Origin: an uncultured bacterium
Lineage (GTDB): Bacteria > Verrucomicrobiota > Kiritimatiellia > CAIKKV01 > CAIYGI01
Length of the DNA: 57,773 bases
Assembly (NCBI GenBank): GCA_903925685.1
Contig: CAIYGI010000186.1
Span: 1 to 57,773, forward strand
Reading direction: 5' to 3'
Made by a program: the position numbers and the translations under genes
Part shown: positions 7,494 to 57,594 of the stretch, piece after piece
How positions within the stretch are numbered: position 1 is the stretch's first letter
How the letters are laid out: each line of letters begins with the position of its first letter
The notes under the pieces: model-generated
What the model saw: the letters and a program-made list of their open reading frames with translations, nothing else
Database searches by the model: none
What the model was told of the DNA's origin: nothing

Positions 7494-8333
7494 CTACGGA
7501 ATGAAGGACGACAAATTCGAGGGCAGCGGATGGGTTTCGGAGAGTATGGTTGTCAACACGCTGGTGGCGAGGGCGAAACTGGCGGCGAAAGCCAGCAGCA
7601 CCGGCCAGCGCACGCGGGCGCCCTGGACAGCGCGCCCCAGCGTCATGAGCAGCCAGGCGAATGAGAATGATGCCGCCGCGAGCAGTGCGCGCATGTCGCA
7701 GGGCAGCGCATAATGCCAGACGAATACCGAGCGGTCCCATGGCAAATCCGGCCGGCGATTCTTTTGCGCGCCGCTGTATGCCGCCAGCAGATTGCGCCGG
7801 ATGTCGGGGGCCGCGCCTTCGTAACGTTCGGCGCGCTCCAGCGCGCGGCGGGCTTCGTCAAAGCGCCCGGCTTGCAGCAAGGCCGTGCCGAGGTTGTAAA
7901 AAAGCGTGCCATTTTGAATTCCCGCAGCCGCCAGAGTTTCGTAATGCCGCGCCGCGGCGCTGAACTCGGACGGCGTGCGCGCATGCGCCATGGCGGTATT
8001 GGCTTTGTCCCAGAGGAAACGGCGTTCGTCTTCCGGCAGCGCCGCCGCGCGCCCCGGCATGGCAGGCAGCATTAGCAATAGCAGCAGGGACGGCAGGAGA
8101 AGGCGGGTGAGTGGTGAGTGGTGAGTAGGGAGTGGGGAGTGGTGAGTGGTGAGTAGGGAGTGGTGAGGGGGAGGGCGAAGAGCCACGCCGTCACCGGAGC
8201 GGCTACGAGAATTGCGTTGCACTGCGTCCGACGCCTGACCAGTGAGCGATTTACTGAAACCTGAAACCTGAACCCTGAAACCTGAACCCTGAACACCGAA
8301 CACCGAACACCCCTTCCGCCTGATGGTTCTCAT
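7494..8333 (-). CDS. TPR membrane protein (BatE-like)
   Basis: LFYNLGTALLQAGRFDEARRALERA TPR and two C-terminal TM helices; ATG overlaps batD TGA (ATGA); last gene of the Bat cluster. Confidence 0.7.
   Translation of the reverse strand: MRTIRRKGCSVFGVQGSGFRVQVSGFSKSLTGQASDAVQRNSRSRSGDGVALRPPPHHSLLTTHHSPLPTHHSPLTRLLLPSLLLLLMLPAMPGRAAALPEDERRFLWDKANTAMAHARTPSEFSAAARHYETLAAAGIQNGTLFYNLGTALLQAGRFDEARRALERAERYEGAAPDIRRNLLAAYSGAQKNRRPDLPWDRSVFVWHYALPCDMRALLAAASFSFAWLLMTLGRAVQGARVRWPVLLAFAASFALATSVLTTILSETHPLPSNLSSFIP
8105..8167. repeat. Heptamer tandem array (TGGTGAG/TAGGGAG) x9
   Basis: Nine consecutive 7-bp units read directly. Confidence 0.9.
8254..8312. repeat. Heptamer tandem array (CTGAAAC/CTGAACC/CCGAACA) x8
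   Basis: Eight consecutive 7-bp units just downstream of the batD stop. Confidence 0.9.
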
Positions 8334-10246
8334 GTCCCTGCCTCCGTGCGGTTGGCGGCGCACAATACTTTGTATAACCGGTCTCGCGTCACGGAGTCGA
8401 GGGGTTCTGTATCGCCGCCGAAGGAGGCTTCGATATGGCGCTGTAGTTCCCGCGCCACTCCCTCCGCCGCGTCGTTGGACACGCCGCAATGGAGCAAAGC
8501 GTCGCGCGCTTCGGCGGGGGTCAGGCTCGCCGGCGGCAGGTTCCAGCGGTCGGCGAGGAAGGCGCGCAGGACGGCGCAGTATGCGGCGGGCGTGGCGGCG
8601 CCGGTTTGCCTCAGCGCGCGATGGGCGCTGCGCAGCGCGCCGCGGCGGCGGAGGGCGCGCATCCAATCCGGACGGCGCCGGCGCACGAAGCCTGCCAGCA
8701 CGACGATCCCGTAAACGGATGGACCCGCCGCCGCCAGGGCCGCCACCCACGGCGAACCGAGCAGCGGCGCCGATTCCGCACCATGGGGATCGAGCCGCAT
8801 TGCGGTTGGCGACAGGGGCCGGGCGTCGGGCGGTTCGGATGAGCGGATGACTGGATTGGTGGAGGCGACAATCTGCTCGGCCGTGACCTCTGTCGTGCGC
8901 CGGACTTTGATCGGCAGCGGCGCGGTTGTCACGGTGCGATAGGCGCGGTTGCTCGCGTCATAATAACTCACGGCGATGGCCGGCAGTTCATAGCTGCCCG
9001 CCGCGCGCGGGCGGATGGTGTAGCGGTAGGCGCGGGCATCGTCGCGCTTCACGGTCTGCACGCTGTCGCGGTACACCTCGAAACGTTCGACGAGGTTGCT
9101 CTGGAGGTCGAGTCGCGGGATGAGCAGGTTGTGCAACTGAATACCACCGCCCACGGTCAGGGTCAGTTGCAGCGGATCGCCGACATTGCAGGTCTGCGCG
9201 TCTAGCGCGGCCGTGGCGGTCAGGTTGCTGCCGATGGCGCCAATGTAGGAGTCGGGCCGACTATCCTCCGGCGGCGGGATGACGCGGACCGTGACCGCGG
9301 CTCCGACGGCCAGCACGTCCTGGCGTTGAGGATTTGCCGCTTCGGAACCGGCCACGGGTACGGGACCTTTGAAAATCACCGGACCAAAGGTGTAGTCGCC
9401 TTCCTTGAGCGGTTCGTAACGCAGGACGAGTGTGTATTCGGCGTATTCCGCTCCGTCGGCTGCAACCCATTCGCGATCGAGGTGAAACCGGGCCTGGCGC
9501 GGACCGTCGATGTCGAAGGGAATGGGCATCCCCGACTGGACCGTAAAGTTGTTGATCGCAAAACCCGGCTGGCGCGGATCGGACAGCAGGCGGTTGTTGA
9601 GGAAGGCTTTCAGGTCGGGCGTCTTAAGTCCGTCGATGTTCTCGCCGTTCATGTAAGGCACATTCAGCAGCGGCGCGGCCTCGGGGTAGAGCGGGTCCAG
9701 CGCGGCCAGTGCGCCGGTCAACCGGCGGATGCGGATGGCGAGTCGCAGATCGAAGGGTTCGTTTACCAGAACGTCATTGCCCGAGGCGGTCAGTCGCAGT
9801 GTCACCCAGGACTGCTGTTCAATGCCGGTCACGGTGACCGCCGGCGCGCTTTCGCTTAGCACGCGTCCGCCGGCAAGCGTCACCCGCACGGGACCGGGGA
9901 TGAAACGGCCGGCTTGATTGGGCGTCGCCTCATAACGGTAGACGCGCCCGCTGAAGCCGACATGCTGCATGCGGCCATTGATAAAGGTCATTGAATACTG
10001 GCTGACGTCCTGACTTCCAAGCGGACGCAGGACGCAGCCGGTGACCGCGCTCAGGTCGGGAGCGGCGCCGGCGGCGTTTCCGACGCGTACATCCATCAGC
10101 AGCGATTCGCCAATGTAAATCTGGCTGCGATTGACGGTAACCTGGAGCGAGGGCTCGTCGGCGCAAGCGGCAACGGCCACCAAACAGAAAAAAAACGCGG
10201 CGAAAAGCAACGGTTTGCTTCCTGATGCTATGCCGGAATTATGCAT
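8330..10246 (-). CDS. batD: BatD family exported protein
   Basis: Signal peptide, repeated beta-sandwich modules (IYIGES, VNEPF, VGDPLQLTL), C-terminal TM; lies in the MoxR/VWA cluster. Confidence 0.8.
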   Translation of the reverse strand: MHNSGIASGSKPLLFAAFFFCLVAVAACADEPSLQVTVNRSQIYIGESLLMDVRVGNAAGAAPDLSAVTGCVLRPLGSQDVSQYSMTFINGRMQHVGFSGRVYRYEATPNQAGRFIPGPVRVTLAGGRVLSESAPAVTVTGIEQQSWVTLRLTASGNDVLVNEPFDLRLAIRIRRLTGALAALDPLYPEAAPLLNVPYMNGENIDGLKTPDLKAFLNNRLLSDPRQPGFAINNFTVQSGMPIPFDIDGPRQARFHLDREWVAADGAEYAEYTLVLRYEPLKEGDYTFGPVIFKGPVPVAGSEAANPQRQDVLAVGAAVTVRVIPPPEDSRPDSYIGAIGSNLTATAALDAQTCNVGDPLQLTLTVGGGIQLHNLLIPRLDLQSNLVERFEVYRDSVQTVKRDDARAYRYTIRPRAAGSYELPAIAVSYYDASNRAYRTVTTAPLPIKVRRTTEVTAEQIVASTNPVIRSSEPPDARPLSPTAMRLDPHGAESAPLLGSPWVAALAAAGPSVYGIVVLAGFVRRRRPDWMRALRRRGALRSAHRALRQTGAATPAAYCAVLRAFLADRWNLPPASLTPAEARDALLHCGVSNDAAEGVARELQRHIEASFGGDTEPLDSVTRDRLYKVLCAANRTEAGT

Positions 10247-10274
10247 GTTTCGTTAGGTTCCCGCAACTATTTTA

Positions 10275-10300
10275 CCACGGATATTACAGATTACACTGAT
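10275..10300. repeat. Degenerate nonamer repeat (CCACGGAT/ATTACAGAT/TACACTGAT) at island border
   Basis: Three related ~9-bp units at the batD-side edge of the AT-richer island. Confidence 0.5.
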
Positions 10301-10845
10301 AAGGGTTCGACTGTCGCCATGTCTTGTATAAAATCCTCTACCTTCAGTTGAAGGTCCGCAACTTGGCAATGCGTGATCGCAATGTACCCGTCCGCGTATG
10401 CCTCAATGTCTGTGAACGCCATACTGGCACATTTGATTAGACTCTCTGCTCTTGGCCCGGCAACCCGTCCCCCGTGATGTGCGATGAGATTGCGGAGGCA
10501 ATTGGCGCTGTTGAACCACCCGGATTCAGGGAATTCAATCGCGTTGACTTCAAGAGAATTCCTGACCCACTCTACATGTGATTTGCCTTTGCGTCTCTCC
10601 ACCTTGCTCGGCAACTTGTCGCAGAGCTTCCCCGAATAGTACTCCCAGAGACCCCAAGCTGCCACGAAGTAGCCTTGCCTGGCGAGCCACGTCGATATCC
10701 GGAAAGGACGAACGGGGTGTTTACAATTGGCGTACCTTGCCAATGCCTGCGTATCCATCGCTTCCGGGTCAACCTTCGTTGCGAGTTCGATATAGTTGTT
10801 CCAGAGCAATTCGAGAGTCTCATATGCTGTGTTCGCAGAATGCAT
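10291..10845 (-). CDS. Putative HEPN-domain protein
   Basis: N-terminal WGLWE helix plus NCLRNLIAH (R-x4-H) motif. Confidence 0.6.
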   Translation of the reverse strand: MHSANTAYETLELLWNNYIELATKVDPEAMDTQALARYANCKHPVRPFRISTWLARQGYFVAAWGLWEYYSGKLCDKLPSKVERRKGKSHVEWVRNSLEVNAIEFPESGWFNSANCLRNLIAHHGGRVAGPRAESLIKCASMAFTDIEAYADGYIAITHCQVADLQLKVEDFIQDMATVEPLSV

Positions 10846-10874
10846 CTTCTTGTTCTGGTTCGCAGTTTCCTTTC

Positions 10875-11318
10875 TTAGAAGAACTTAGAGGACTGCAACA
10901 CCAAATTGGTTCCGACAATCCACCCGATTACATCACCTGCAAGATGTGCCTGCTCGATCCAAAGGTCATGCCTTTGATCGTACGATTCCGGTTCACCCTT
11001 TTGCTCAAGAATCCGTTTCACATTACTTCTTCCTGCTTTCACACGGTTGATCCTCATCAATGTATTCTGAACCATGAGATATCCAGGGATGAGGAACATC
11101 AACCACGATGGCGACTGGCCGATCTTGTGGATCAGCCATGATGCAAGAAGTACAGCAGCGCCGATTTTGATGACATCGAGTAGGCAAATGACGAAAGGCG
11201 AGATCCATTTGGCTTTTTTGAATGCGACCGACAGGGATAATGTGATTGGGAAGAAAGGAAGTTCGATGCCTGCGAGGACGACGAACGTGATCACATAGGC
11301 TCCGATTTTGCCGATCAT
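10875..11318 (-). CDS. Hypothetical membrane protein (gene-cassette-like)
   Basis: AAGGA RBS; several hydrophobic helices; bounded by complementary core sites GTTCGCA/TGCGAAC. Confidence 0.6.
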   Translation of the reverse strand: MIGKIGAYVITFVVLAGIELPFFPITLSLSVAFKKAKWISPFVICLLDVIKIGAAVLLASWLIHKIGQSPSWLMFLIPGYLMVQNTLMRINRVKAGRSNVKRILEQKGEPESYDQRHDLWIEQAHLAGDVIGWIVGTNLVLQSSKFF

Positions 11319-11335
11319 GGTTGTCCTTCTCTTAA

Positions 11336-11394
11336 TGCGAACGTTATCGTTGGGGCGGCGGGTTCACCCGATCACCAGCAACGGTTTGGTCGGC
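11336..11394 (-). mobile_element. attC-like site (59 bp)
   Basis: Minus strand: GCCGACC (degenerate R'') - imperfect hairpin CGTTG..CGGGT/ACCCG..CAACG - GTTCGCA (R'); lies between two co-oriented ORFs. Confidence 0.6.
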
Positions 11395-11847
11395 CTTTGG
11401 TTTGGTGAGTGATTCATTTGATGCGGGAATCAACGGTAGTACTCGTTCAGGATGGAGTATGCAAATCAGAACATGCCACTCTTCCACCAAACGTCGCCGA
11501 TAAGCGGCCTTGTCCTTCGACTTTGCGAGTTCTCGTTTGCTTTGCTCATATGCTGTCTTCTTGAGTGCCTCAAGAACGCACTCAAAGGCGGGGCTGTTGG
11601 GGCGGTGCCGAAGTATCTCATGGGCCACAACATGTCGACTTGTCGGCGTTGTCTTGTTAAGGGCATTCAGAATCTGGGACAACGCTAGGATTCCAATGCC
11701 GTAATAGCCGCTCTTTGCACACTGTAGGGCCTCCTCAACCGCGAAGTACAGCACGGGATTGTGCTGTAGCACCTTTAAGAATCGACGCGACATCCTTACG
11801 AACAGACAACATTTCACAGTGCCGATGTTTATATAGAGGGTGTCCAT
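11344..11847 (-). CDS. Hypothetical protein with a possible HEPN-like RxxxxH motif
   Basis: AVEEALQCAKSGYYGIGILAL..SRHVVAH; ends inside the attC-like site. Confidence 0.5.
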   Translation of the reverse strand: MDTLYINIGTVKCCLFVRMSRRFLKVLQHNPVLYFAVEEALQCAKSGYYGIGILALSQILNALNKTTPTSRHVVAHEILRHRPNSPAFECVLEALKKTAYEQSKRELAKSKDKAAYRRRLVEEWHVLICILHPERVLPLIPASNESLTKPKADQTVAGDRVNPPPQR

Positions 11848-11942
11848 GAGATGTTCTTTCTTGGAGTGGGCAGCTTTTCTCCCGCCGCCGGCACTCTCAA
11901 GTCTCACGCGCCATGCTCAATTGTCGAACATGGTTTAAACTA

Positions 11943-12224
11943 TTATTGCTTTATCAATGATCGTCCGGCCGCGAATTTGTGCAAAACGCTGGCGATGAAT
12001 GTCTGATATGAAAGCCCTTCCTCGACGGCTTTTGTCTGCAAGGTCTCCAAATCGGCCGATGATATGCGGATATTCACGCGTTTATCCTTCAGCAATGTAT
12101 TTCTAGCGTATTGCTGATGTTTTCCGATCTCTTCTTTCACGTTTTTTACGGAACGCCATTCTCCGCGATTGAGAGCTTCGTCCAAGCCCTTCTCTTCTTC
12201 ATCTAAATAAAGCGTTTTTTTCAT
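11943..12224 (-). CDS. CopG/RHH antitoxin (BrnA-type partner)
   Basis: KDKRVNIRIS..GLSYQTFIASVLHKF; ATGA overlap with the toxin. Confidence 0.8.
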   Translation of the reverse strand: MKKTLYLDEEEKGLDEALNRGEWRSVKNVKEEIGKHQQYARNTLLKDKRVNIRISSADLETLQTKAVEEGLSYQTFIASVLHKFAAGRSLIKQ

Positions 12225-12496
12225 GTATCCTCCAAGTATTTCTTTGTCGCTTTTCTGCTGGGCATTATGGTTTTCAAAAACCAGTCATCCCCGTCTTGTA
12301 TAAATGGCACTGCAAACATATAGTTTCTGATTCGGACAAATAGAATCATCTGGCCGTTATGCTTAATCTGATCGGGATGGTCAATAATGTCTATCAAATC
12401 ACCCTGCTCGATATGCAAAACCACCTGCTCAAAACTGATGCCCCGTGTGCGCTTGAGCAATTCGTTCTTATCCGGGTTCCATTTGTACTTGATCAT
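12221..12496 (-). CDS. BrnT-like/DUF4258 toxin
   Basis: WNPDKNELLKRTRGISFE..FLKTIMPSRKATKKY. Confidence 0.8.
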   Translation of the reverse strand: MIKYKWNPDKNELLKRTRGISFEQVVLHIEQGDLIDIIDHPDQIKHNGQMILFVRIRNYMFAVPFIQDGDDWFLKTIMPSRKATKKYLEDT

Positions 12497-12537
12497 GGGC
12501 GGAAACATGAAGGGTTATTATGCAACTTCGCTCCGTT

Positions 12538-12729
12538 TCACCCGATGGCCACCAATTCCTGCATGGCGTCCTCGCGCCGGTCTTCAAGAATCAGATCAAC
12601 GGCCGCGGACTGGCTCTTCAAGCACTCCGCCTTTGTTCGGCCCTGTCCGTCAGCGCCTGGGATTTCAGGGCAATAAGCGACAAACCACTTTTCATCACGT
12701 TCCACAATGGCCGTAAATTCGTTATGCAT
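12538..12729 (-). CDS. hicB: HicB family antitoxin, copy 1 (8-aa internal deletion; partner hicA truncated)
   Basis: Near-identical to 13956..14171 but lacks LRGLPANA; the following hicA start (GTG AAA CGG AGC GAA GTT GCA) hits a stop. Confidence 0.75.
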   Translation of the reverse strand: MHNEFTAIVERDEKWFVAYCPEIPGADGQGRTKAECLKSQSAAVDLILEDRREDAMQELVAIG

Positions 12730-12778
12730 ATCCTCACCTCTTTTCCGGCTGCAATATACCACTGTGTTGGATGGGCGC

Positions 12779-13045
12779 TCAATCGTTTTCCCGAGTAACC
12801 GCTAGCGCACTAAACCTCTCGAATTCGAGAGGTTTAAAGCTTGGGTTGCTCAACTTTTCCCAAAGCCCCAAGAATTCGATCGTGCTACGACCACGCATCC
12901 AGTTGTTGATGATGGCAAATGGCTCCTGAGAATCCCGATATTGCGCGATATCCGTCAACGAAATGTAATCCTGGTCGTTCTTGTTGAGGATCGTGATCGC
13001 GATCCCCTGAACTTCGAGAGTGCTTATTTTGATGGCTCTGCTCAT
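12779..13045 (-). pseudogene. KilA-N domain protein, truncated
   Basis: DYISLTDIA..IINNWMRGRSTIEFLGLWE..NPSFKPLEF, then runs into the hicB promoter repeat. Confidence 0.75.
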
Positions 13046-13680
13046 AGCCCCAAGTCCTTTCTAAAGCCGGCTAGAAAACGCTGCACGTGACCGGTCCGGT
13101 AATGGTTCATCAGCGGGTCGAAGGAATCGGCTTTCAGCTCCGCCAGCAAGTGTTCATCGACACGCAGGGATTCGAGTACTGGAGCGACAGAGTCCCATTT
13201 GCAGTGATGAACATAGACATAGTCGGCCAATGCCTTGAGTGGGTCCGCCATCAGGAAACTTCCGCCGTTTTCAGTCTCGATGCGGCTGACGCCAATGAAA
13301 AATTGGGTCTGTGGCACGCGCGTGAAACTAAAAACTCCCAGCGGGGTGTCGAACGAGCGGGAACGAACCAGCGATGCGCTGGTAATCGCATAGACCGCCT
13401 CGGGGATCCATCCATGGTAAGACAACCCGGACTCCAGGCTGATGTAGCTTGGACCATGGATGCGCTGTGCCAGTTCAAGCGGGTTTACGCTGGAATGGAG
13501 ATAACGCTTATCGAGGCAGTAGAGCCCCCGGCGAATTCTCCAGACCTCTCCTGCGCCGACGGAACGTTTGAGAAGCGCATTAAGACGTGCGCCACTATCA
13601 TTGGTCCAATAGGCGGCCTCCTGCCGCGTAAAGACAGCGCGATTTCCCCTTTCGAGGGCAATTTCGGTCACGGTTTGCAT
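13042..13680 (-). CDS. AbiEi-type (type IV TA) antitoxin/transcriptional regulator
   Basis: RIRRGLY, PSYISLESGLSYHGWIPE, ADPLKALAD motifs; no AbiEii toxin follows. Confidence 0.8.
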   Translation of the reverse strand: MQTVTEIALERGNRAVFTRQEAAYWTNDSGARLNALLKRSVGAGEVWRIRRGLYCLDKRYLHSSVNPLELAQRIHGPSYISLESGLSYHGWIPEAVYAITSASLVRSRSFDTPLGVFSFTRVPQTQFFIGVSRIETENGGSFLMADPLKALADYVYVHHCKWDSVAPVLESLRVDEHLLAELKADSFDPLMNHYRTGHVQRFLAGFRKDLGL

Positions 13681-13689
13681 TTGCTAGAT

Positions 13690-13708
13690 ACTGTCATAAT
13701 ATGACAGT
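13690..13708. promoter_or_regulatory. Perfect inverted repeat ACTGTCATA-A-TATGACAGT, probable AbiEi operator
   Basis: 9-bp arms about 10 nt upstream of the AbiEi-like ATG. Confidence 0.65.
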
Positions 13709-13770
13709 TACATGCAATCGTCTTGCGCGTTGCCAGTCCTATAAATTGACCGGGCGCTGGTTCTGCTCTC

Positions 13771-13959
13771 TCATTTTGGTTCGGGGACTGAAAGACTCCG
13801 GCAAATCTTTGCGGCCAGACGATCTGGTATCTCGGTGTGCCTCGGAACAGCCTCGATCCGACCTGTGTTGGGGCTGGCCCAAAGCGAGTGTGAACCGCCT
13901 TCTCGCTTTAGGTAACACCCATGGCGACGAAGATGCCGCAACAGTTCGTTCCGTTTCAC
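13771..13959 (-). CDS. hicA: HicA family toxin
   Basis: REGGSHSLW..VPRHTEI motifs, 62 aa. Confidence 0.9.
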   Translation of the reverse strand: MKRNELLRHLRRHGCYLKREGGSHSLWASPNTGRIEAVPRHTEIPDRLAAKICRSLSVPEPK

Positions 13960-14171
13960 CCTACGGCCACCAATTCCTGCATGGCATTCGCCGGAAGACC
14001 GCGCAGGGCGTCCTCGCGCCGGTCTTCAAGAATCAGATCGACAGCCGCTGACAGGCTCTTCAAGCACTCCGCCTTCGTTCGACCCTGTCCGTTAGCGCCA
14101 GGGATTTCCGGGCAATAAGCGACAAACCACTTTTCATCGCGTTCCACGATGGCCGTAAACTCGTTATGCAT
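13956..14171 (-). CDS. hicB: HicB family antitoxin (short form)
   Basis: FTAIVERD..VAYCPEIPGANGQGRTKAEC. Confidence 0.9.
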   Translation of the reverse strand: MHNEFTAIVERDEKWFVAYCPEIPGANGQGRTKAECLKSLSAAVDLILEDRREDALRGLPANAMQELVAVG

Positions 14172-14191
14172 AACTAACCTCTTTCCTTAGT

Positions 14192-14221
14192 AATATACCA
14201 CTGTGGCGGATGGAGACTCAA
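14192..14221 (-). promoter_or_regulatory. sigma70-type promoter of hicBA (TTGAGT-18-TATATT)
   Basis: Conserved in both hicB copies (also ~12753-12782). Confidence 0.55.
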
Positions 14222-14229
14222 TCTCTTTT

Positions 14230-14245
14230 CTGAACACCGAACACC
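14230..14245. repeat. Heptamer arm (CTGAACA CCGAACA)
   Basis: Immediately after the batB/C stop, at the island border. Confidence 0.6.
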
Positions 14246-14252
14246 TGCGTCA

Positions 14253-17015
14253 TTACCAGTCCCGGCCAACCGCCGGGAGCGGGTTGTAGTTGTTACGGTC
14301 GCGCATTTCGTCCTGATGTTCTTTTTCGCGTTGCTTGGCCTCATCGAGCATCTTTTGAATTTGCTCCGGAGTCATCTCGCCCGGTTTGGGTTGCGGTTTG
14401 GGCTGCGGTTGCGGGTTGTCGGACTTGGGCGGCGGATTGGCGGGAGAGTTGGTTTGCGACTGCTTTTGGTCCTGCTGCTTTTGATCCTTTTGATCTTGTT
14501 GCTTTTGATTCTGGTCTTGAGGCGGGGGTGGGGGCAGCAGTTTGGCGATTTCCGTCAGTAAGTCGCGACTCTTGCGCTCTTGCGGCAGGGCGTTGGACGG
14601 ATCTGTGGATGTCAGTGCGGTGAGCGCCTGGCGCTGTGTATCAACAGCCTCGTCGGCGAGTTTGAGTATCTTGGCCCGAGTTTCGGCGCTGATCAACATG
14701 TTGGTGTTGGGAGCGGCGGCGCTGGCCGGTGCTACTGCCGGACTGCCCGACTGCCCGACTGTTTGACTCGGCTTAGGCGGCGGCGCGGGCAGGCCCTGGG
14801 GCGGGACGGCCTGCGCGAAACGATTGCTGAAAATCTGCGTCAGGTCGATGGTCTCCTGCTGTTCGCCGCGCAGACGCCCGTCCGGCTCGCGCTCCATGTG
14901 CTGCGTGAGCGCGATGGCGTTGGTCTGGCGGCGCAACCCTTCGCGCAAAGCCATCTCGTGCGAGGCGACGCCTTTCCAGAGCCGGTAGATGGCGGCCTCG
15001 CCGTCGGCGGCGCGCTGCGGCGCGTCCGGTTCGAGGTCGCGCAGGCGCGAGGCCGAGGCATCCAGATGATCGCGCACGCTTTCGATATAGGCGGCGATTG
15101 CCTCCGGGCCGGGCATGTTGGTGGCCTTGGGCTGCTGTTTCAGCGCCTCGATCAGTTTGGCCTTGAGCGGCACGATCAAGTCGGATGCCTCGCGTTGTAA
15201 GCGGGCGGCTTCCTCGAGTTGGGCCACGCGGGAGGGAGTAAGGTTGGTGGCCGCCGCGTCGGCAGCGGCTGTGACCTGGCGCTCTTCGGTGAGCAGTTGG
15301 TCGGCAATTTGCGGCGCGGGGGTTTGTCCGTGTTTCTCCATTAGCGCGGCAATGCGCGCCTGTTCACGGGCCTCGGGAAGACGCGCGGCGACCACCGCAA
15401 GATCGGCGCGGGTTTGTCCGGCGTCGGGCGCGGCGCGCAACGCGCGGCGGTAGGCGTCAGCCGCTTCGGCCAGACTGCGGGCGCGCGTCTCGGTGGCGGG
15501 ATTGGTGGCGGAGCTGCTGCGATCGGCGAGCGCGGTCAGCGTGGCGCCCAGGTTGCGCAAACCGGCGGGCGCGGGTTTGTCACCGTGCGACAGGCGCTGC
15601 CGGAAGAGTTCGGCGGCGGGGGCATACTGGCCGGCGTCGAAGAGCGCGCAGCCGGCGTTGTAGAGATAGTCGGCGGACGCTTCGACGGTGGCATTGGACG
15701 CGGCGCGGAGATAGGTGTCCGCCGCGGACTGATAGTTGTGGAGCGCGGCCTGGCGCTGTGCGTCGCGCGCCAGATCGCGACTGCTGACTATGGCGCCGTT
15801 ATGCGCAGATGTAACGCTGGCGGAGGAAATGTTGCTGCTGACGTCGTCAGGCGCCGCTGTGTCATTGGTCTGCGCCTGGAGACTGCCGGCGATGAACAGC
15901 GCGCTGACGGCGAGGCTGGTGAGTGGTGAGTGGTGAGTGGTGAGTGGTGAGTGGGGAGTCGTGAGTGGTGAGTTGTGAGTGGGGAGTGGGGAGTGGGGAG
16001 CGGGGGGGGCGGCGGGGCGGCGGAGCAGGGGTTGGCCGCGGCTGAGGGCGAGCATGGCGAGCCAGGCGAGTATGGCGGGCAGCAGCAACCACTGGAAGCG
16101 GTCCACGCGGCGCTGGGTGATGGACTCCTGTAAATCGCGCGCCTGCAGGCGGCTCAAATGGTCGCGGTAGAGCGCGCCAAGTTGCACGCGGCTCTGTCCG
16201 ACGGGCACGTAGGCGCCGCCGGTGATTTCGGCGATCTCGCGCAGGGTTTCGTGATTCAGATGGCTGACGACATCCTGGTTGTTGTAGGTCATGGGCGCGG
16301 CGTCCTCGGCGCCGGCGGGGATCACGGCCCCGGCGGTGCTGCCGAGACCAACGGTGAAGACCACCACGCCCTTTTCGCGGGCGCGCTGGGCGGCATCCTT
16401 GGAACGTCCGGCCAGATCCTCGCCGTCGGAAACCAGCACCACCGCCCGGTGCGCGCCTTCGGTCGCGTCGAAGGCCTCCACCGCGCGGTCCAGGGCCATG
16501 CCGATGTCGGTTTCTCCCGCGGGCGCCGAGTCAACCCCGGCGTTGTCGAGCATCTGGGAGAAGAAGGCGTAGTCCGTGGTCAGCGGGCAAAGCGTGATGG
16601 CCTTGCCGCGGAAGGCGACCAGCCCGACGCGGTCGCCGTGCAAAATGCGCGCGAGATCCTGCAAATCCGCCTTGGCCCGGCCGAGGCGCGAGGGGTGTAC
16701 ATCCCTCGCCAGCATCGAGCGCGAAACGTCCAGCGCGATAATCAGGTCGCGGCCACGCTGATAAACACGCTCCGGCCGGGCACCCCAGGTAGGCCGCGCG
16801 GCGGCAAGCAGCGCCAGCAGCGCGCCGCTGAGCAACAGCGCCAGTTGGACGGCGAAACGCGCCGTGTCCGTCGGCGGCAGCAGCCGCACCGCCAGGGCCC
16901 CGCTGATAAATCGCGAGGCGGAGCGCGGGCGATGGCGCGCGATCCAGATCCAGATGGCCCCGGAGATGGGAACGATCCAGAGCAGGAAGAGCAGGCTGGG
17001 GTGGAGGAAGGTCAT
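14253..17015 (-). CDS. VWA + TPR/coiled-coil protein (BatB-BatC-like fusion)
   Basis: DVSRSM MIDAS, PLTTDY, SDGE; then TM, repeat-encoded linker, signal-like segment, YNAG/RNLG TPRs, Q-rich tail ending in RDW. Confidence 0.85.
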   Translation of the reverse strand: MTFLHPSLLFLLWIVPISGAIWIWIARHRPRSASRFISGALAVRLLPPTDTARFAVQLALLLSGALLALLAAARPTWGARPERVYQRGRDLIIALDVSRSMLARDVHPSRLGRAKADLQDLARILHGDRVGLVAFRGKAITLCPLTTDYAFFSQMLDNAGVDSAPAGETDIGMALDRAVEAFDATEGAHRAVVLVSDGEDLAGRSKDAAQRAREKGVVVFTVGLGSTAGAVIPAGAEDAAPMTYNNQDVVSHLNHETLREIAEITGGAYVPVGQSRVQLGALYRDHLSRLQARDLQESITQRRVDRFQWLLLPAILAWLAMLALSRGQPLLRRPAAPPAPHSPLPTHNSPLTTPHSPLTTHHSPLTSLAVSALFIAGSLQAQTNDTAAPDDVSSNISSASVTSAHNGAIVSSRDLARDAQRQAALHNYQSAADTYLRAASNATVEASADYLYNAGCALFDAGQYAPAAELFRQRLSHGDKPAPAGLRNLGATLTALADRSSSATNPATETRARSLAEAADAYRRALRAAPDAGQTRADLAVVAARLPEAREQARIAALMEKHGQTPAPQIADQLLTEERQVTAAADAAATNLTPSRVAQLEEAARLQREASDLIVPLKAKLIEALKQQPKATNMPGPEAIAAYIESVRDHLDASASRLRDLEPDAPQRAADGEAAIYRLWKGVASHEMALREGLRRQTNAIALTQHMEREPDGRLRGEQQETIDLTQIFSNRFAQAVPPQGLPAPPPKPSQTVGQSGSPAVAPASAAAPNTNMLISAETRAKILKLADEAVDTQRQALTALTSTDPSNALPQERKSRDLLTEIAKLLPPPPPQDQNQKQQDQKDQKQQDQKQSQTNSPANPPPKSDNPQPQPKPQPKPGEMTPEQIQKMLDEAKQREKEHQDEMRDRNNYNPLPAVGRDW
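15917..16000. repeat. Heptamer array (TGGTGAG/TGGGGAG) x12 inside a CDS
   Basis: Twelve units = 84 bp, encoding the PHSPLPTHNSPLTT...HHSPLT linker. Confidence 0.9.
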
Positions 17016-17026: not shown

Positions 17027-17168
17027 GGAGCCAGAATTCAGAAGTCAGAATTCAGAATGGTAAAAGAATAAGCATTCAACATATTGCCATCATCAAGTAA
17101 CTTACTTGCCGAGGATAAAACCACCATTGTTTTCATTCTGACTCCTGAATTCTGACTTCTGGCTTCTG
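17027..17168. repeat. Inverted pair of heptamer arrays (GAATTCA/GAAGTCA ... TGAATTC/TGACTTC) around a 74-bp AT-rich spacer
   Basis: 17027-17059 is a near reverse complement of 17134-17166. Confidence 0.9.
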
Positions 17169-17178: not shown

Positions 17179-18216
17179 CTAGACAATCCTCCGCCGCAAC
17201 AAGGTATTCAGCGCCGCGCCCAACATCGCCAACGCCAGACCTGGCAGAATGAAGGCGGGGGCGTATTCGTGGTACTGGCGGAATTCCTCCGAGGTGACGG
17301 CGGTTTTCTCAAGGCGATTGATGTCCTCCAGCGCGTCGGCGAGTCCCTTCGGGTCCTTGACATTGAAGTATCGTCCGCCGGTGGCGCCTGCGATGCGGCG
17401 CAACTGTTCTTCATCGATTGTCACATCGGCGTAACCGATGGTTTCACGGCCGAACATGTCGCGGGCGCGGAATGGAGCGCGACCGGTGCTGCCAACGCCG
17501 ATTGTATAAACCCGCAGTCCCATCGATTTGGCGAGTTTGGCGGCCTCGTCGGGTTTATTGACGCCGGTGTTTGAGTCTCCGTCAGTGAGCAGCACGATCA
17601 CCCGGCTTTTGACGTTGGTGGCGGTCTGCAGACGCGCGCAGGCGGTGGCCAGGGCATCGCCAATGGCCGTGCGCATTTCTTCCTCATTGACCACCCGGCC
17701 CTGGTTGTCAATCACCTGCGACGGAATAGCAATGCCCTTGAGGATGTGCGCCAGCGCGGCATGGTCCAGCGTCAGCGGCGCGCGGCTGGTGGCATAGCCG
17801 CCGAAACTGACGATGCCGATCAGGTCGTTGGGACGGCTTTCGATGAAACGCGTGAAGGTTTCCTTGACGACATCCAGGCGGCTGCGCAGAGCGTCGCTGG
17901 TCGAGAAATCGAGCGCGTCCATCGAGCCTGAGACGTCGAGCACGGTTTCAATGGCAATCGCGTCCGTGTGCCGCGTGACACGTTCCAGCACGGTCTGAGG
18001 GCGCGCCATGGCGATGATCGCGAGCGCCACACCAAGCAGCACGAGCCAGGGGGAGACGGGCCGCAAGCGGACGCGCCATGTCGGCGCGCTGACCGGCAGT
18101 CTGGCAAGCGCCGAAAAGGGCAGGGCGGGCTGGCGGCGCCGACGCAGCACCATCCAGGCCGCCGCCAGTAGCGGCAGGAAAAGCAGGAAGGCCAGTGGAG
18201 TGGCAAAACGGAACAT
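17179..18216 (-). CDS. batA: VWA domain protein BatA
   Basis: MFRFATP, ARPQ, DVSGSM, PLTLDH, TAIGDAL, LLTDG, YTIGVG. Confidence 0.9.
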   Translation of the reverse strand: MFRFATPLAFLLFLPLLAAAWMVLRRRRQPALPFSALARLPVSAPTWRVRLRPVSPWLVLLGVALAIIAMARPQTVLERVTRHTDAIAIETVLDVSGSMDALDFSTSDALRSRLDVVKETFTRFIESRPNDLIGIVSFGGYATSRAPLTLDHAALAHILKGIAIPSQVIDNQGRVVNEEEMRTAIGDALATACARLQTATNVKSRVIVLLTDGDSNTGVNKPDEAAKLAKSMGLRVYTIGVGSTGRAPFRARDMFGRETIGYADVTIDEEQLRRIAGATGGRYFNVKDPKGLADALEDINRLEKTAVTSEEFRQYHEYAPAFILPGLALAMLGAALNTLLRRRIV

Positions 18217-18218: not shown

Positions 18219-19286
18219 CTACACTCCTCCCGGCGGGGTTGGTGTTACGGTTGCCGTTTGAACCGCGACATCGGTCTCGATGTAGGTGCGCGCCGTGGCG
18301 ATCGCATTGTCAATGGCCGGGCGCGTGGGTTTAAAGGCAGCGTACTTCACCAGGTCGGCGGCCTCGAGGAAATCGCAGAGGGGCCCGAAACCTGGAGCAC
18401 GGCTGACGGCTTGCAGAAACTCTTCCGTGGTCTGTTCCCTGGCGCGGATGGCATGCGCGCGTTCGATGTAGACGCGGACAATGCCCGTCAATTCGTAGTA
18501 GAAGTCCTTGACGCGCTGGTGTCCGACCAGATCCCGCGCCAGCAGTTCCTGAAGTTCCCAAAGCGCGCGCTCCTTCGGCGACAGTCTGCGCAGCACTATC
18601 TCGCGATGCCAGCGGCGCAGCAGTCGGTATGCGCCATAGACCAACCCCGCCGCCAGCAGCAACGCGAGCAGCGTCAGCATGATGTTGCGCGGCGAAGGGG
18701 GAATCCAGATCGGGCGGTCGGGCGCCGAGACGCCCGTGGGCAGCGCGCCTGCGATCAGCGGGGCTTCTTCGAAGACCATGGGACGCGTGGCAAGCCAGTC
18801 CGACATGCGCAGGCGGTCCGTCCGGAACCAGGTGACGATCAGCGGCGCCACGCGGTGTTCGGCGGCGGCCAGCGGCGTGAGTTTCACGATCCGCTCCAGT
18901 TCCCGCCGCCCGTCGCGAAGCTGAGGTTCGCTATCGTACGAGCCGTTGATGGTGAAACCGCTGAAGCGGTTTTCCAGGGGCGGCAGGGTGATGTCGAAAT
19001 TGGTTGGCGACGACACGCCGATGCGCAGGATCAGGTCGCGGTCCAGATGCGCCATTCCGGTATCGGCGCGCAGCGTGACCGTTACGCCGTCCGAACTGAC
19101 CGTTTCGGCGCGCGGCTTGTCGGCATCGGCGCTGCTTTTTGCCGTCGTCGAACGCGGCGCGCAGGCAACGCCCAAGGCCGCCAGCAAGGCCAGCGCGAGG
19201 AAACTTCGCAAATGTTTGCGGGTGAGTGAACAATTATTCCGTCCTACCACCTTCCACCTACCACCTTCCACCTGTGATGTATTCAT
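18219..19286 (-). CDS. Bat-cluster lipoprotein/membrane protein
   Basis: ATGA overlap with the DUF58 stop; lipobox LGVAC; C-terminal EQTTEEFL..ADLVKYA motif. Confidence 0.7.
   Translation of the reverse strand: MNTSQVEGGRWKVVGRNNCSLTRKHLRSFLALALLAALGVACAPRSTTAKSSADADKPRAETVSSDGVTVTLRADTGMAHLDRDLILRIGVSSPTNFDITLPPLENRFSGFTINGSYDSEPQLRDGRRELERIVKLTPLAAAEHRVAPLIVTWFRTDRLRMSDWLATRPMVFEEAPLIAGALPTGVSAPDRPIWIPPSPRNIMLTLLALLLAAGLVYGAYRLLRRWHREIVLRRLSPKERALWELQELLARDLVGHQRVKDFYYELTGIVRVYIERAHAIRAREQTTEEFLQAVSRAPGFGPLCDFLEAADLVKYAAFKPTRPAIDNAIATARTYIETDVAVQTATVTPTPPGGV
19243..19273. repeat. Heptamer array (CCTACCA/CCTTCCA) x4
   Basis: Directly after the DUF58 stop; translated as VEGGRWKVVG in the next ORF. 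Confidence 0.85.
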
Positions 19287-22629: not shown

Positions 22630-22637
22630 GCTTCCTG

Positions 22638-23186: not shown

Positions 23187-23205
23187 TTATTCATCTCCTA
23201 TATCT

Positions 23206-46142: not shown

Positions 46143-46374
46143 CAAGAGGGTGTTCAGGGTTCGGTTTGGCCTCTGGCGCAAAATACGGCAGCGACCGCGC
46201 ATCGGTAAATTGTAGCTTTTTCGATAGCGTTTCCCCGACTTTTCCAGGAAATTCACCCTTAATGGCAAAATTTCAGAAAAGACTAGACTCGCCGCGGCGC
46301 ACTGTTCATAATCAGGATTATAAGGTTAGAAGTCGGTATGGACCTGCTGCAGGGCGACGCAGGTCACCGGAACT

Positions 46375-47811: not shown

Positions 47812-47839
47812 CTAGCACCTACCACCTAGCACCTTACCC
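47812..47839. repeat. Heptamer array (CTAGCAC/CTACCAC) between the pheT stop and the IS break point
   Basis: Four units. Confidence 0.75.
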
Positions 47840-51316: not shown

Positions 51317-51570
51317 AATCGTCTACCCCGCCTCTGAATGGGGTGACTCTACCAGACTCCCGCTTTCGTGAAAATGCCGAAAACCAGCGTCGAAGCCATG
51401 CGTGGTGTATGGCCTTCCGCGGGGGGAAAATTCTGATGTCAAAAAAAGTGCGACGGAGAAAACCACGAGTAAGCGTTGTGTGCTTTGCCCCGGATTCCGC
51501 TTGTCTTTCCAGTGTTGCACAGTATAAGTTCGATGCACAGGCAGAACGAGCGATAAGAGAACTGACAACA

Positions 51571-53634
51571 ATGGCAACACCAGCAGAAACGGACACTGAG
51601 TATTCCTCATTCCTAGGCCAAACCCTTGTGCCGAAAATGTCAAGAGCGCCATTGGTCGTTGATTTGTTCGCTGGTTGCGGTGGGCTCGCGCTTGGCTTTG
51701 AAGCCCAAGGATTTGAGACGCGCGGTTACGAAATGAATGCCATATGCTGTGCAACCTATAGGCGAAATCTTCGCAGCGAGTGTATCAATGTTACGCTCAC
51801 CCCAGAGTCGGCGCTGCCTCCGGCGCTTGTCTTGATCGGTGGTCCTCCTTGCCAACCCTTCAGTGTTATCGGCAATCAGAATGGATTGAGCGACTCCCGG
51901 AATGGTTTCCCAGTGTTCATTGAGGCCGTCCGGCGGTTGAATCCAGACATATTCCTCTTCGAAAATGTCCGCGGTTTAATTTACCGAAGTAAACCATACT
52001 TCGACGAGATTCTTCAGAAACTGAAAAAGTTAGGGTACGTCATGGAATATCAGTTGCTTAATGCCGTGGATTACGGTGTGCCTCAGCGGCGTGAGCGCCT
52101 GATAGTCGCGGGGCATCGGGGCGTTTTTTCATTTCCCAAACCATGTGCGAAACGTGTGACTGCCGTTGAAGCTCTTGGCGGTTTGGCGATGACTGCACCG
52201 CCGGAATCGCGTTTTCTTACAAAGAGTATGGATGAGTATATTGCACGGTACGAGGCGGCTTCCTCCTGTGTCACGCCACGCGATCTGCATCTTGACGAGC
52301 CAGCCCGTACGCTCACCTGTCGCAATCTTGCCGGAGCGACTTCGGATATGCACAGAATCCGGCTTCCTGATGGCAGGCGGAGACGTATCCTGCCGCGTGA
52401 GGCAGCACGTCTGCAATCTTTTCCGGATTGGTTCCAATTTGAGGGAACGGAGACGGAGGTGTTCACTCAGATCGGAAATGCCGTACCCCCGATGTTGGCG
52501 TTTCATCTGGCTGGCGCTGTCCGCGAGTATCTGAATACAAAGGAACGGCTTTCGCCTTCGGAAACTCTTTACAGGAACCTGCCGTCGCAACTTGAGCTAA
52601 GTCTGGTACACGAGCCGAAGGAGAAATACATGACGCAGTTTGTGAAACTTCAAGGGAAGAAGCGACAAACGGAGCGGGTGGTCAACGAGGCTCTGCACAT
52701 CCTCGCGGCACTCGGAATTCCATTCCAAGGTTTGTCGGAGCGGAGACTCGAGAAAATGGCAATGGCGTTTCTTGCTGTTTGCGATGTTCGCAAGCCGGGT
52801 GTTTGGAGCACAGTCAAGGACTCATCGTCAGGCCGGGTTCTTACAAGCCGACAGATCATTGAGTATGTCAACTCGCACTTTGAGGAAGACATCTCCAGCG
52901 GATCGTATGACGATATTCGCAGGAAGGATCTTAAACTGCCTACTGTGGCGGGCATTATTCTCAAGAGCGCGAACAATCCAGACGCCTCAACAAACAACCC
53001 GACACGGGCATATGCGCTCAGTCCCGCCTATGCTCCGACAGTGAGAGCATATGGAACGGACGGGTGGGAATCCGATGTGGCGGACTTCCTTTCCGGTCGC
53101 GAGACCCTCGGCGAGAGACTCGACGACACTCGACCGATGAGTCTGATCCCAGTCACGCTTCCGTCTGGAGTGGTGTTACAACTCACCAAAGGGAAACACA
53201 ATCAATTGCAGAAGTCCGTAATCGAAGACTTTCTGCCCCGGTACGGCGAAGGATCGAAAATCCTCTATGTGGGCGATACTGCCAACAAATTCCTGCATTT
53301 GGACGCAACTCAACTGAAGCGTCTCCAGTTCTTCGAACTGGCTCATGAAGAGTTACCAGACATCGTCGCGTACAGCGAGCAGAAGAACTGGTTGTTTTTG
53401 ATCGAGGCAGTTCACAGTTCCGGTCCAATATCCAAGTTGCGACATGAGCAACTCCGTGAACTGACGAAGGATTGCACGGCGGAAATCGTCTATGTCACGG
53501 CATTTCTCGATCGGCAAACGTTCAGGAAATACGCGCCGGAAATCGCGTGGGAGACGGAGGCGTGGATTGCAGAAGCCCCGGACCACGTAATTCACTTCGA
53601 TGGCAAACGTTTCCTTGGACCGTATAAGCCATAA
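51571..53634 (+). CDS. C5 DNA methyltransferase fused in frame to a BsuBI/PstI-family restriction endonuclease
   Basis: DLFAGCGG, GGPPCQPFS, FENV, QRRER, EAARLQSFPD, QIGNAVPP; then GKHNQLQK..F.PR..ILYVGDT..LPDIV..LIEAVHSSGPI..IAWETEAW. Confidence 0.85.
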   Translation: MATPAETDTEYSSFLGQTLVPKMSRAPLVVDLFAGCGGLALGFEAQGFETRGYEMNAICCATYRRNLRSECINVTLTPESALPPALVLIGGPPCQPFSVIGNQNGLSDSRNGFPVFIEAVRRLNPDIFLFENVRGLIYRSKPYFDEILQKLKKLGYVMEYQLLNAVDYGVPQRRERLIVAGHRGVFSFPKPCAKRVTAVEALGGLAMTAPPESRFLTKSMDEYIARYEAASSCVTPRDLHLDEPARTLTCRNLAGATSDMHRIRLPDGRRRRILPREAARLQSFPDWFQFEGTETEVFTQIGNAVPPMLAFHLAGAVREYLNTKERLSPSETLYRNLPSQLELSLVHEPKEKYMTQFVKLQGKKRQTERVVNEALHILAALGIPFQGLSERRLEKMAMAFLAVCDVRKPGVWSTVKDSSSGRVLTSRQIIEYVNSHFEEDISSGSYDDIRRKDLKLPTVAGIILKSANNPDASTNNPTRAYALSPAYAPTVRAYGTDGWESDVADFLSGRETLGERLDDTRPMSLIPVTLPSGVVLQLTKGKHNQLQKSVIEDFLPRYGEGSKILYVGDTANKFLHLDATQLKRLQFFELAHEELPDIVAYSEQKNWLFLIEAVHSSGPISKLRHEQLRELTKDCTAEIVYVTAFLDRQTFRKYAPEIAWETEAWIAEAPDHVIHFDGKRFLGPYKP

Positions 53635-55483: not shown

Positions 55484-55522
55484 GGTGTTCGGTGTTCGGG
55501 AAAGGCCCTGAACACTGAACAC
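55484..55522. repeat. Inverted heptamer pair (GGTGTTC x2 GGG / CCC TGAACAC x2)
   Basis: Hairpin-like; intergenic, right after the VTT gene stop. Confidence 0.8.
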
Positions 55523-56650: not shown

Positions 56651-56672
56651 TTGTGTCTGGGAGTGTGCCGAC

Positions 56673-57560
56673 ATGCGGCCGCTGATTGAACAATTTCTCG
56701 ACTACCTGACGCTGGAGTGCGGGCTGAGCCCCAATACCCGCGCCGCCTACGGCCACGATCTCTTCGCCTTCGCCGACTTCTTCCTTACGCGCGGGGTGGA
56801 TCGTCCGGCCGATCTTCGCCGCGAAACGATCGTGGACGCGCTGCACGACGGCAAGGCCCACGGACTGGCGGTCAACACCCTCTCCCGCCGCCTGGTCGCG
56901 CTCAAGGTCTTTCTGCGCTACCTCGTGCAGGAAGGCATGCTCGAACGCAACGTGACCGACGTCATGGATGCACCCAAGATTTGGAAACTGCTTCCCGGCA
57001 CACTGAGCCTACGCGAAGTGGACCGTCTGCTCGCGGCGCCGACGGGGGACGATCCGCGCCATCTACGCGACCGGGCGTTGCTGGAACTGCTGTATGCCAC
57101 CGGAATGCGTGTCTCGGAACTGGCCGATTTGCCGCTGGAAGACCTGCACCTCGACGCCGGCTATCTGCGGGTGCTGGGCAAGGGCAACAAGATGCGCGTT
57201 GTGCCATTCGGAGAAACGGCCAGGCAGCGCGTCACGCAATACCTGTCCGAAGCCCGTCCTCGTTTTGTCAAAACAGGCGGCGCGCGCGAGCTCTTCCTCA
57301 CCAACCGCGGGCGCAAGTTGAGCCGCAAGACCGTCTGGTGGCTGATCAAAGGTTACACCCGCGCGGCTGGCTTGACGGCACGCGTGACGCCGCACACGCT
57401 GCGCCATTCCTTCGCCAGCCACCTGCTGGCCAATGGCGCGCCGCTGCGGCTGATCCAGGAAATGCTCGGCCACGCCGACATCGCCACGACGCAAATCTAT
57501 ACCCATGTGGACGGCCAGCGCCTGATGGCCGTGCACCGCCAGTTCCACCCGCGCGCGTGA
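56673..57560 (+). CDS. xerD: Site-specific tyrosine recombinase XerD
   Basis: E.GLS.NT..AY..DL, RDRALLELLYATGMRVSEL, GKGNK.R, HTLRHSFASHLL, LGHADIATTQIY, HPRA. Confidence 0.93.
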   Translation: MRPLIEQFLDYLTLECGLSPNTRAAYGHDLFAFADFFLTRGVDRPADLRRETIVDALHDGKAHGLAVNTLSRRLVALKVFLRYLVQEGMLERNVTDVMDAPKIWKLLPGTLSLREVDRLLAAPTGDDPRHLRDRALLELLYATGMRVSELADLPLEDLHLDAGYLRVLGKGNKMRVVPFGETARQRVTQYLSEARPRFVKTGGARELFLTNRGRKLSRKTVWWLIKGYTRAAGLTARVTPHTLRHSFASHLLANGAPLRLIQEMLGHADIATTQIYTHVDGQRLMAVHRQFHPRA

Positions 57561-57563
57561 GTA

Positions 57564-57594
57564 AGGTGGAAGGTGGAAGGTGGTAGGTGGAAGG
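57564..57594. repeat. Heptamer array (AGGTGGA) x4 after the xerD stop
   Basis: Same family as the 19243 and 20202 arrays. Confidence 0.85.

Follow-up and report, generated by a model that had tools for sequence, protein, structure and literature searches.

Several genes of the Bat/MoxR operon in an uncultured Kiritimatiellia bacterium are bordered by degenerate tandem repeats of 7 bp, and the question raised by this locus is what such arrays are and whether they have anything to do with the variable genes that lie between some of them. The stretch of DNA analysed here, termed the window, is 57,773 nucleotides long (contig CAIYGI010000186.1 of assembly GCA_903925685.1) and carries this operon on its minus strand, as assigned with Pfam. 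A preliminary description of the window had taken the arrays for the arms of an insertion-hotspot system that brackets defence and mobile cargo, with a G-rich arm always following a stop codon and a C-rich arm preceding the next gene. Period-7 arrays were confirmed by Tandem Repeats Finder (TRF) and by reading of the sequence at every locus named in that description. The arrays are heptanucleotide simple sequence repeats (SSRs) with a polarity relative to gene ends, a class already described in other bacteria, and the reading of them as an insertion system is unsupported beyond two or three suggestive loci.

Abundance and gene-end polarity of the arrays

The window is one contig of a 4.12-Mb assembly (347 contigs, 60.6% G+C; termed G000) whose host is a lake bacterium of the Planctomycetes-Verrucomicrobia-Chlamydiae (PVC) type. 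Genes were called as the longest open reading frames (ORFs) scored by codon usage, which gave 2,963 genes covering 81% of the genome. TRF returned 760 rows of period 7, compared with 217 of period 6 and 285 of period 8. At a strict cut-off (score of at least 40), 397 arrays of period 7 were retained, together with 15 of period 6 and 63 of period 8, while a Markov-3 simulation of the genome, used as the chance control for these counts, produced a single array of period 7. The 760 rows reduce to 180 canonical units; merged arrays number 479, and 371 of these lie outside the ORF calls even though ORFs occupy most of the genome. Such arrays thus occur throughout the genome and are not peculiar to the window. 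The trinucleotide GGG is found in 74 of the 479 units and 181 are without any GG, while copy numbers are flat from two to six with no preference for four units. A G-quadruplex was rejected as a general property of the arrays on account of this scarcity of GGG and the flat copy numbers.

The orientation of the arrays is strongly tied to gene ends. In co-directional intergenic regions, arrays nearer to the upstream stop are G-rich on the sense strand in a ratio of 84:18, and those nearer to the downstream start are C-rich in a ratio of 64:15 (Fisher p = 3e-18 for the contrast between stop and start). All eight after-stop arrays in the window are G-rich on the sense strand (following batD, batBC, DUF58, moxR, DUF4340, the thioesterase gene, pheT and xerD), and those before DUF58, before the body of BatE and inside BatB-BatC are C-rich; the polarity rule of the preliminary description was thus borne out within the window, while its 'always' becomes roughly 80% across the genome. 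Ratios of G-rich to C-rich arrays in convergent (32:15) and divergent (15:28) regions point in the same sense. When gene orientation is ignored, the strand reading away from the nearest gene is G-rich in 208 cases and C-rich in 63, with an average composition of about 39% G and 14% C, and with A roughly equal to T.

Only near genes is this polarity seen: the ratio was 185:38 for arrays at most 80 nt from a gene end and 23:25 for those farther away. The same was observed in a sample of a same-genus genome (termed G001; 1,147,073 bases in 81 pieces), in which the ratios were 65:11 near to genes and 9:11 far from them. Orientation and position are therefore non-random genome-wide, as the preliminary description had anticipated. 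Of 161 G-rich after-stop arrays, 112 begin within 15 nt of the stop codon and 41 overlap it; the median array start lies 10 nt past the stop, and before a gene the median array end lies 18 nt upstream of the ORF start. A barrier imposed by stop codons was ruled out as the cause, since a bias of 87:23 remains where both orientations have equal stop-codon content.

The arrays are probably heptanucleotide repeats driven by slippage, which selection acting on orientation keeps at gene ends; the cargo found between arms would be a by-product. The arrays would arise, expand and contract by replication slippage, and their polarity would be kept by selection tied to gene expression. Before start codons, a candidate cause is the avoidance of G-rich, start-codon-like or Shine-Dalgarno-like repeats in leaders; after stop codons, it could be the avoidance of C-rich, G-poor untranslated RNA, a possible loading site for Rho.

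Arm pairs, turnover between congeners and the cargo between arms

Some neighbouring arrays form inverted pairs, and the preliminary description had held that arms of one family are inverted wherever both occur. Four of the pairs that it named fold as hairpins (z = -4.8 for 55484-55522, -6.8 for 25485-25551, -5.1 for 17032-17168 and -2.5 for 29937-30004). The arms at batD-batE, with GGGTTCA-like and CCACTCA-like units, are not complementary, yet they obey the polarity; and only 119 of the 479 arrays have an inverted partner within 250 nt, compared with 20-32 in controls. Most arrays (about 75%) are solo. Inverted pairs of the same family within 200 nt number 32, against 6.5 expected from shuffling of units. 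Under the slippage reading, complementary pairs would be a by-product of two circumstances, namely that neighbouring arrays tend to share a unit family and that polarity is reversed from one edge of an intergenic region to the other.

Five of six spacers tested have no second copy in the genome, so that only the arms recur; the batD-batE spacer gave only three partial matches of 27-34 nt elsewhere. Miniature inverted-repeat transposable elements, or any other mobile copies of arms plus spacer, were rejected on these grounds. Arms that flank a single gene, with a C arm 5' and a G arm 3' as seen for DUF58, were considered as a further arrangement and rejected, since same-family inverted pairs at spacings of 500-2000 nt (17) do not outnumber direct pairs (25). 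The genome has two matches to the Y1 transposase family (PF01797). Neither has a period-7 array above chance in the 2.5 kb around it, and an origin as repetitive extragenic palindrome (REP) doublets forming hairpins (REPINs) mobilized by a REP-associated tyrosine transposase (RAYT) was rejected. No recombinase accompanies the arms. An integron would have its integrase gene beside cassettes that each end in an imperfect inverted repeat with conserved core sites (attC), and the one tyrosine recombinase seen in the window, an XerD-like gene (56673-57560), is remote from the arm pairs. Mismatches between arms in co-directional regions, scored on the sense strand, comprise 19 G:U, 22 A:C and 46 others. 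The lack of a G:U excess gives no sign of pairing kept in RNA, and the earlier suggestion that arms pair at the RNA level to loop cargo out was not upheld.

One interpretation places the origin of the arrays at the level of DNA. Telomere-like addition of a G-rich strand to 3' ends at intergenic breaks, followed by rejoining, would give a G arm followed by a C arm on both strands and would trap filler or foreign DNA between them. The outward direction of the G-rich strand can be described irrespective of how the genes are oriented, the DNA between arms is unique in sequence and rich in A+T, some units of pair plus spacer are present or absent as a whole between congeners, and the arm mismatches are free of an RNA signature. 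Break healing does not, however, predict that the polarity should disappear beyond about 80 nt from gene ends, and the approximately 180 units argue against a single template. The only reverse-transcriptase match in the genome is on a 1.5-kb contig, and no bacterial enzyme is known to add telomere-like heptamers at breaks. This origin is extremely improbable. A broader form of the idea takes its basis from the polarity with G outward, from the unique filler rich in A+T and from the gain or loss of units in their entirety. It would have breaks at operon junctions repaired by repeated heptamer addition to 3' ends, occasionally trapping foreign DNA. In many phyla, arm pairs would then be the scars of such repair and places where cargo is preferentially captured; we regard this as very unlikely.

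The relationship between arrays and cargo was studied by comparison with G001, of which 772,808 bases aligned to G000 at 91.5% identity. Its contig C106 is collinear with positions 7505-34902 of the window at about 90% identity. Every shared window array differs in copy number from its G001 counterpart, as after the DUF58 stop (4.4 units in the window, 6.3 in G001) and at the 25485-25551 pair, which is also present in G001. At batA-batB a pair is found in both genomes with different families, that of G001 being AGGGTTC/GAACCCT, and at DUF4340-moxR the G arm stands alone in the window, while in G001 it abuts a C arm of five units. Among eight close pairs with an orthologous G001 junction, one is conserved and seven are switched, reduced or absent. 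These comparisons show that the arrays turn over very fast between congeners.

A filled and an empty allele were confirmed at moxR-DUF58. In G001 the moxR stop is followed by (GAAGGTG)x4, a 91-bp A+T-rich spacer and (TCCACCT)x4.4 ahead of the DUF58 ATG, and in the window the same arms enclose a 2.97-kb restriction-modification (RM) island in place of that spacer. A second congener (locus L082, G002:C350) has 260 nt upstream of DUF58 with neither moxR nor an array, and the junction has thus been remodelled a third way. A second clean case of filled and empty alleles has 2.55 kb of cargo in G001 (L155) and an empty pair in G000 (C329), and several further array-bordered cargo cases exist between the two genomes. 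At batBC-batD, by contrast, G001 lacks an array and holds a different insert of 0.8 kb, only the window having a (short) arm. Of the two junctions named in the preliminary description, moxR-DUF58 gave the empty and filled pair looked for, with the RM island exactly between the arms.

Gaps between collinear matches of G000 and G001 number 192, and 84 of them touch a period-7-type array, a contact expected because arrays do not align. Insertion-type events, defined as at least 700 bp in one genome and at most 160 bp in the other, number 38. Of these, 13 touch an array in either genome and 10 do so in G000, where arrays occupy 66 of 452 intergenic regions with aligned flanks (14.6%; binomial p = 0.042). 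The remaining 25 events are free of arrays in both genomes, and only nine of the 38 empty alleles carry one. Cargo genes were identified by a Pfam scan of 89 ORFs from 37 cargo segments, with the window RM island added from the window-wide Pfam run. Cargo of defence, toxin-antitoxin (TA), RM or phage type, a class that reflects our own sorting of the Pfam matches, was found in 5 of 13 array-bordered events and in 10 of 25 array-free events, and is thus no rarer where arrays are lacking. The genome-wide link to cargo is at most a weak enrichment.

It could be that arm pairs are recognition or breakage sites that let defence and mobile cargo enter and leave operons. The filled and empty alleles with the same arms, the array-bordered events and the contact of three of the five resolvable variable window segments with an array are consistent with such a role. 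Set against this are the preponderance of array-free indels, the indifference of cargo type to arrays, the solo state of most arrays, the unique spacers, the unflanked Y1 genes and the lack of a recombinase beside the arms. The bracketing geometry is itself trivial, since the arrays hug stop and start codons. Moreover, junctions with GGGNATC heptamer repeats in Xanthomonas are, in the available text of Rehm et al. (2015; PMC4692102), more stable than controls. Mediation of cargo entry and exit by the arms is quite unlikely in the light of these points. The arrays fill the first and last bases of an intergenic region, and anything that lands there lies between arms. Under the slippage reading, cargo such as the RM island would be found between arms for this reason of position and not because the arms mediate insertion.

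Public sequence collections were also compared. The window is present in four lake-water metagenome runs from one study, and no RNA data set was among the public matches listed for it. Among public contigs, which have about 5x coverage and have dropped rare variants, no record joins across the RM island (20233-23207), a result that says nothing on excision. At 17058-17135 there are numerous joints in which the sequence between the arms is different; we attribute these to further loci that share the arm family rather than to excision. It was also observed that public metagenome contigs tend to stop at arrays (19085-19273 and 24223), indicating that the repeats fragment short-read assemblies.

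Coding arrays and other features of the window

The arrays, genes and islands of the window are collected in Table 1.

Table 1. Genes, islands and heptanucleotide arrays of the window (gene assignments from Pfam; G-rich and C-rich refer to the sense strand).
Feature	Position	Strand	Remarks
C-rich array, CCACTCA-type, about 9 units	8106-8167	-	upstream of the BatE TPR body
G-rich array, GGTGTTC/GGGTTCA/GGTTTCA	8254-8311	-	directly after the batD stop
TPR BatE		-	beyond batD in the operon
batD	8330-10246	-	stop at 8330-8332
TA island	10250-14253		between batBC and batD
Short G-rich array, GGTGTTC x2	14230-14245	-	7 nt past the batBC stop, at the edge of the TA island
BatB-BatC fusion	14253-17015	-	
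In-frame coding array, 12 units	15917-16000	-	BatB-BatC domain boundary
Inverted pair, CAGAAGT/CAGAATT family	17032-17168	-	batA-batB junction; unique 77-nt A+T-rich spacer
batA	17179-18216	-	
G-rich array, GGTGGAA/GGTGGTA, 4.4 units	19243-19273	-	after the DUF58 stop
DUF58	19283-20191	-	
C-rich array, CTTCCAC family (sense strand)	20202-20231	-	stops 10 nt short of the DUF58 ATG; forms the right edge of the RM island
RM island cargo	20232-23203	-	346-aa ORF, C5 cytosine methyltransferase, 182-aa ORF
Three-gene island with C5 methyltransferase	20309-23186	-	
Short G-rich array remnant, GGTGGAG family	23204-23222	-	immediately past the moxR stop; forms the left edge of the RM island
moxR	23223-24227	-	
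G-rich array, AGTGAAC family, solo	24212-24252	-	overlaps or follows the DUF4340 stop
DUF4340	24238-25440	-	
Inverted pair, AGTGAAC family	25485-25551	-	between the ABC-auxiliary gene and DUF4340; 30-nt spacer
ABC-auxiliary gene	25558-27474	-	
Inverted pair, AGGGTTC/CCTGAAC family	29937-30004	-	indel beside the pair in G001
Short G-rich array, GGGTGTTCAGGGTTCGG	46147-46165	+	5 nt past the stop of the thioesterase gene (45612-46142); G001 synteny ends here
G-rich array, GGTGCTA/GGTGGTA	47812-47834	-	begins 6 nt past the pheT stop; G001 synteny ends here
Inverted pair, GGTGTTC family, short loop	55484-55522	-	between a VTT-domain gene and an alcohol-dehydrogenase-like gene
G-rich array, AAGGTGG, 4.6 units	57563-57594	+	2 nt past the xerD stop

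Two of the window arrays have a bearing on protein sequence. The array at the BatB-BatC boundary reads in both genomes as a linker rich in P, S, T and H between two hydrophobic segments of the fusion, and it is in frame in both although it has 12 units in the window and 3.7 in G001 (920 and 891 aa, respectively). At batD-batE (8060-8335) the batD stop overlaps an ATG (ATGA), and the frame that starts there runs into BatE without a stop in the G arm, spacer or C arm. This is so both in the window and in G001, although the C arms of the two differ by 42 nt. The array may accordingly encode the N-terminal region of BatE, as judged from the reading frame. Inside ORFs, the stop-free C-rich orientation would survive as in-frame low-complexity linkers.

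It could also be argued that the arrays are contingency (phase-variation) switches, in which gain or loss of a 7-nt unit shifts frame or spacing and toggles the adjacent gene. A unit of seven is not divisible by three, congeners differ in copy number, and the frame starting at the batD stop runs through both arrays into BatE; a phase-variation system based on heptanucleotide repeats, that of Haemophilus influenzae HMW1A, is also among the literature matches listed. Note, however, that the arrays flank housekeeping genes (pheT, xerD, moxR), that most of them are outside ORFs and that both coding arrays checked are in frame in both genomes. The same counter-argument has been made for Xanthomonas and Nostoc in the available part of PMC4692102. 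Phase variation is thus extremely unlikely to account for the arrays.

The islands of the window have features of their own. The RM island begins and ends with imperfect copies of a direct repeat (about 17 nt; sense strand ATGGA(A)CGCCTTTGAAC) at 23170-23190 and 20250-20270, and the first ORF of the island starts with the left one; the repeat may be an att-like site or a duplication. An inverted 22-nt copy (20 of 22 matches; local BLAST E-value 0.001) of the final moxR codons (23222-23243) is present inside the 182-aa ORF of the same island (22898-22919). In the TA island, a module of about 270 nt, consisting of a small ORF and its upstream region, is duplicated at 12527-12794 and 13945-14233 with 92-93% identity, which suggests that the island grows by gaining similar cassettes. 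A 763-aa ORF at 51343-53634 fuses C5 cytosine methyltransferase and BsuBI/PstI restriction endonuclease domains. Another two segments that are unlike G001 lack bordering heptamer arrays: 34902-36735, an N6/N4 methyltransferase island at which two G001 contigs end, and 40109-42203, which carries a BrnA/BrnT-type toxin-antitoxin.

Distribution, known heptamer repeats and the meaning of the polarity

The closest named relatives of the DUF58 protein are from metagenome-assembled genomes (MAGs) of Lentisphaerae, Verrucomicrobiota and Kiritimatiellae, at no more than 71% identity. Of 27 order-level relatives with the moxR-DUF58 junction, about 7-10 carry arrays there, with differing units. In the array-bearing relatives the DUF58 start always has a C-rich array next to it, and where there is a pair, its G-rich arm comes after the moxR stop. 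In many other order-level relatives the junction is only 2-10 nt long and has no array. A set of 80 DUF58 loci from other phyla contains 94 period-7 arrays, of which 15 (at 10 loci) are situated in the 250 nt upstream of DUF58 and show this polarity too. Arrays or inverted pairs at moxR-DUF58 were observed in Verrucomicrobiota, Acidobacteria, Omnitrophota and other MAGs, again with other units and the same polarity (loci L021, L029, L038, L049, L054, L057, L060 and L069, just upstream of the DUF58 match, and L085-L096 and L106).

This recurrence with unchanged polarity, in order-level relatives and in distant phyla, could indicate that the arrays are functional cis-elements of mRNA. The C-rich arrays would act as unstructured leaders or as binding sites for proteins (S1, Csp or CsrA-like), the G-rich ones as protective or ribosome-retaining 3' elements, and the pairs as hairpins for segmental stability or translational coupling. 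The extreme proximity of the arrays to stops and starts, the restriction of polarity to the vicinity of genes and the strong hairpins agree with this, and a translational-regulator idea is in print for the TAACTGA repeats discussed below, in the available text of PMC4679880. The sense strand shows no G:U excess, though, and presence, family or copy number has changed at seven of the eight congener pairs. In addition, many relatives manage with a short array-free moxR-DUF58 junction, the difference in Shine-Dalgarno-like sequence given below is not significant, and a Rfam scan of the whole window returned no family at gathering score. A dedicated function in mRNA is, on balance, unlikely.

No paper describing heptamer repeats in Verrucomicrobia, Lentisphaerae or Kiritimatiellae was among the literature matches listed. 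The gene-end polarity itself has been published for Xanthomonas and Nostoc, whose heptamers are of the GGGNATC type (Rehm et al. 2015). As far as the available text goes (PMC4692102), these repeats resemble the present arrays in having a 7-nt unit, in being spread genome-wide with an intergenic preference, in occurring singly and as inverted pairs, and in varying in length between close relatives. Their G-rich strand is the coding one in the 50 bp that follow a stop and the non-coding one in the 50 bp that precede an ORF, again as here. They form one consensus, with GGG in every unit and a preference for four units, whereas the present genome has about 180 unit variants, with GGG in 74 of 479 and no four-unit preference.

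The available part of MacGregor (2015; PMC4679880) attributes to Mrazek (2007) the finding that heptanucleotides are the most abundant long SSRs and a proposal of slippage. The present arrays meet the description of long heptanucleotide SSRs, with an excess of period 7, a preference for non-coding DNA and copy-number instability between relatives. Compared by partially available description, the cyanobacterial short tandemly repeated repetitive (STRR) sequences and long heptanucleotide SSRs are alike in consisting of several abundant families of tandem heptamers, sporadic across phyla and with no settled function; STRR sequences differ in host, which here is a lake bacterium of PVC type. The TAACTGA repeats of marine Beggiatoaceae, in the same available part of PMC4679880, likewise lie a few nucleotides upstream of starts; the genes beside them are of every kind, essential genes among them, and some of the repeats are within ORFs. 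They have a single unit, with 169 direct sets and one indirect set, and no after-stop class appears in the portions of the paper available. The unit TAACTGA is not among the 60 commonest canonical units of G000. Finally, REP sequences and bacterial interspersed mosaic elements (BIMEs), as well as REPINs with their RAYT, share with the arrays a short intergenic form, a frequent position just past stops, inverted pairs or hairpins, and hundreds of copies per genome. REPs are palindromic units of about 20-40 nt, while the present repeats are tandem heptamers that flank no Y1 transposase gene.

The reading of slippage-driven repeats held in place by orientation-dependent selection must be set against several observations that do not favour it. 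Slippage is inferred, as are the reasons for the period of seven and for the polarity. The fivefold excess of same-family pairs would need a local sharing of families. Shine-Dalgarno-like 4-mers are found in 37 of 115 genes with an upstream array (32%) and in 809 of 2003 others (40%), with p = 0.10; the difference is not significant, and the idea of the arrays as substitutes for Shine-Dalgarno sites was rejected. The enrichment of arrays at cargo indels (26% versus 14.6%, p = 0.042) is weak and yet lies in the direction of the preliminary description. If they differ from controls at all, the junctions of this genome are a little more variable (10 of 38 versus 66 of 452, a weak difference), in contrast to the more stable ones of Xanthomonas (PMC4692102, available text). 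Lastly, the gene calls for G000 are crude, with foreign genes missed and starts set too far upstream.

Why bacteria favour 7-nt repeats that point away from genes is a question that has stood since the STRR and long-SSR surveys, and this genus is a good test bed for it, with hundreds of arrays, many units and two congeners with fast turnover. The many types of unit, together with the same polarity at moxR-DUF58 in several phyla, indicate that the rule depends neither on the sequence of the unit nor on its potential to form a G-quadruplex. For practical work, the arrays disrupt short-read assemblies, mislead the calling of start codons and create in-frame low-complexity linkers in proteins.

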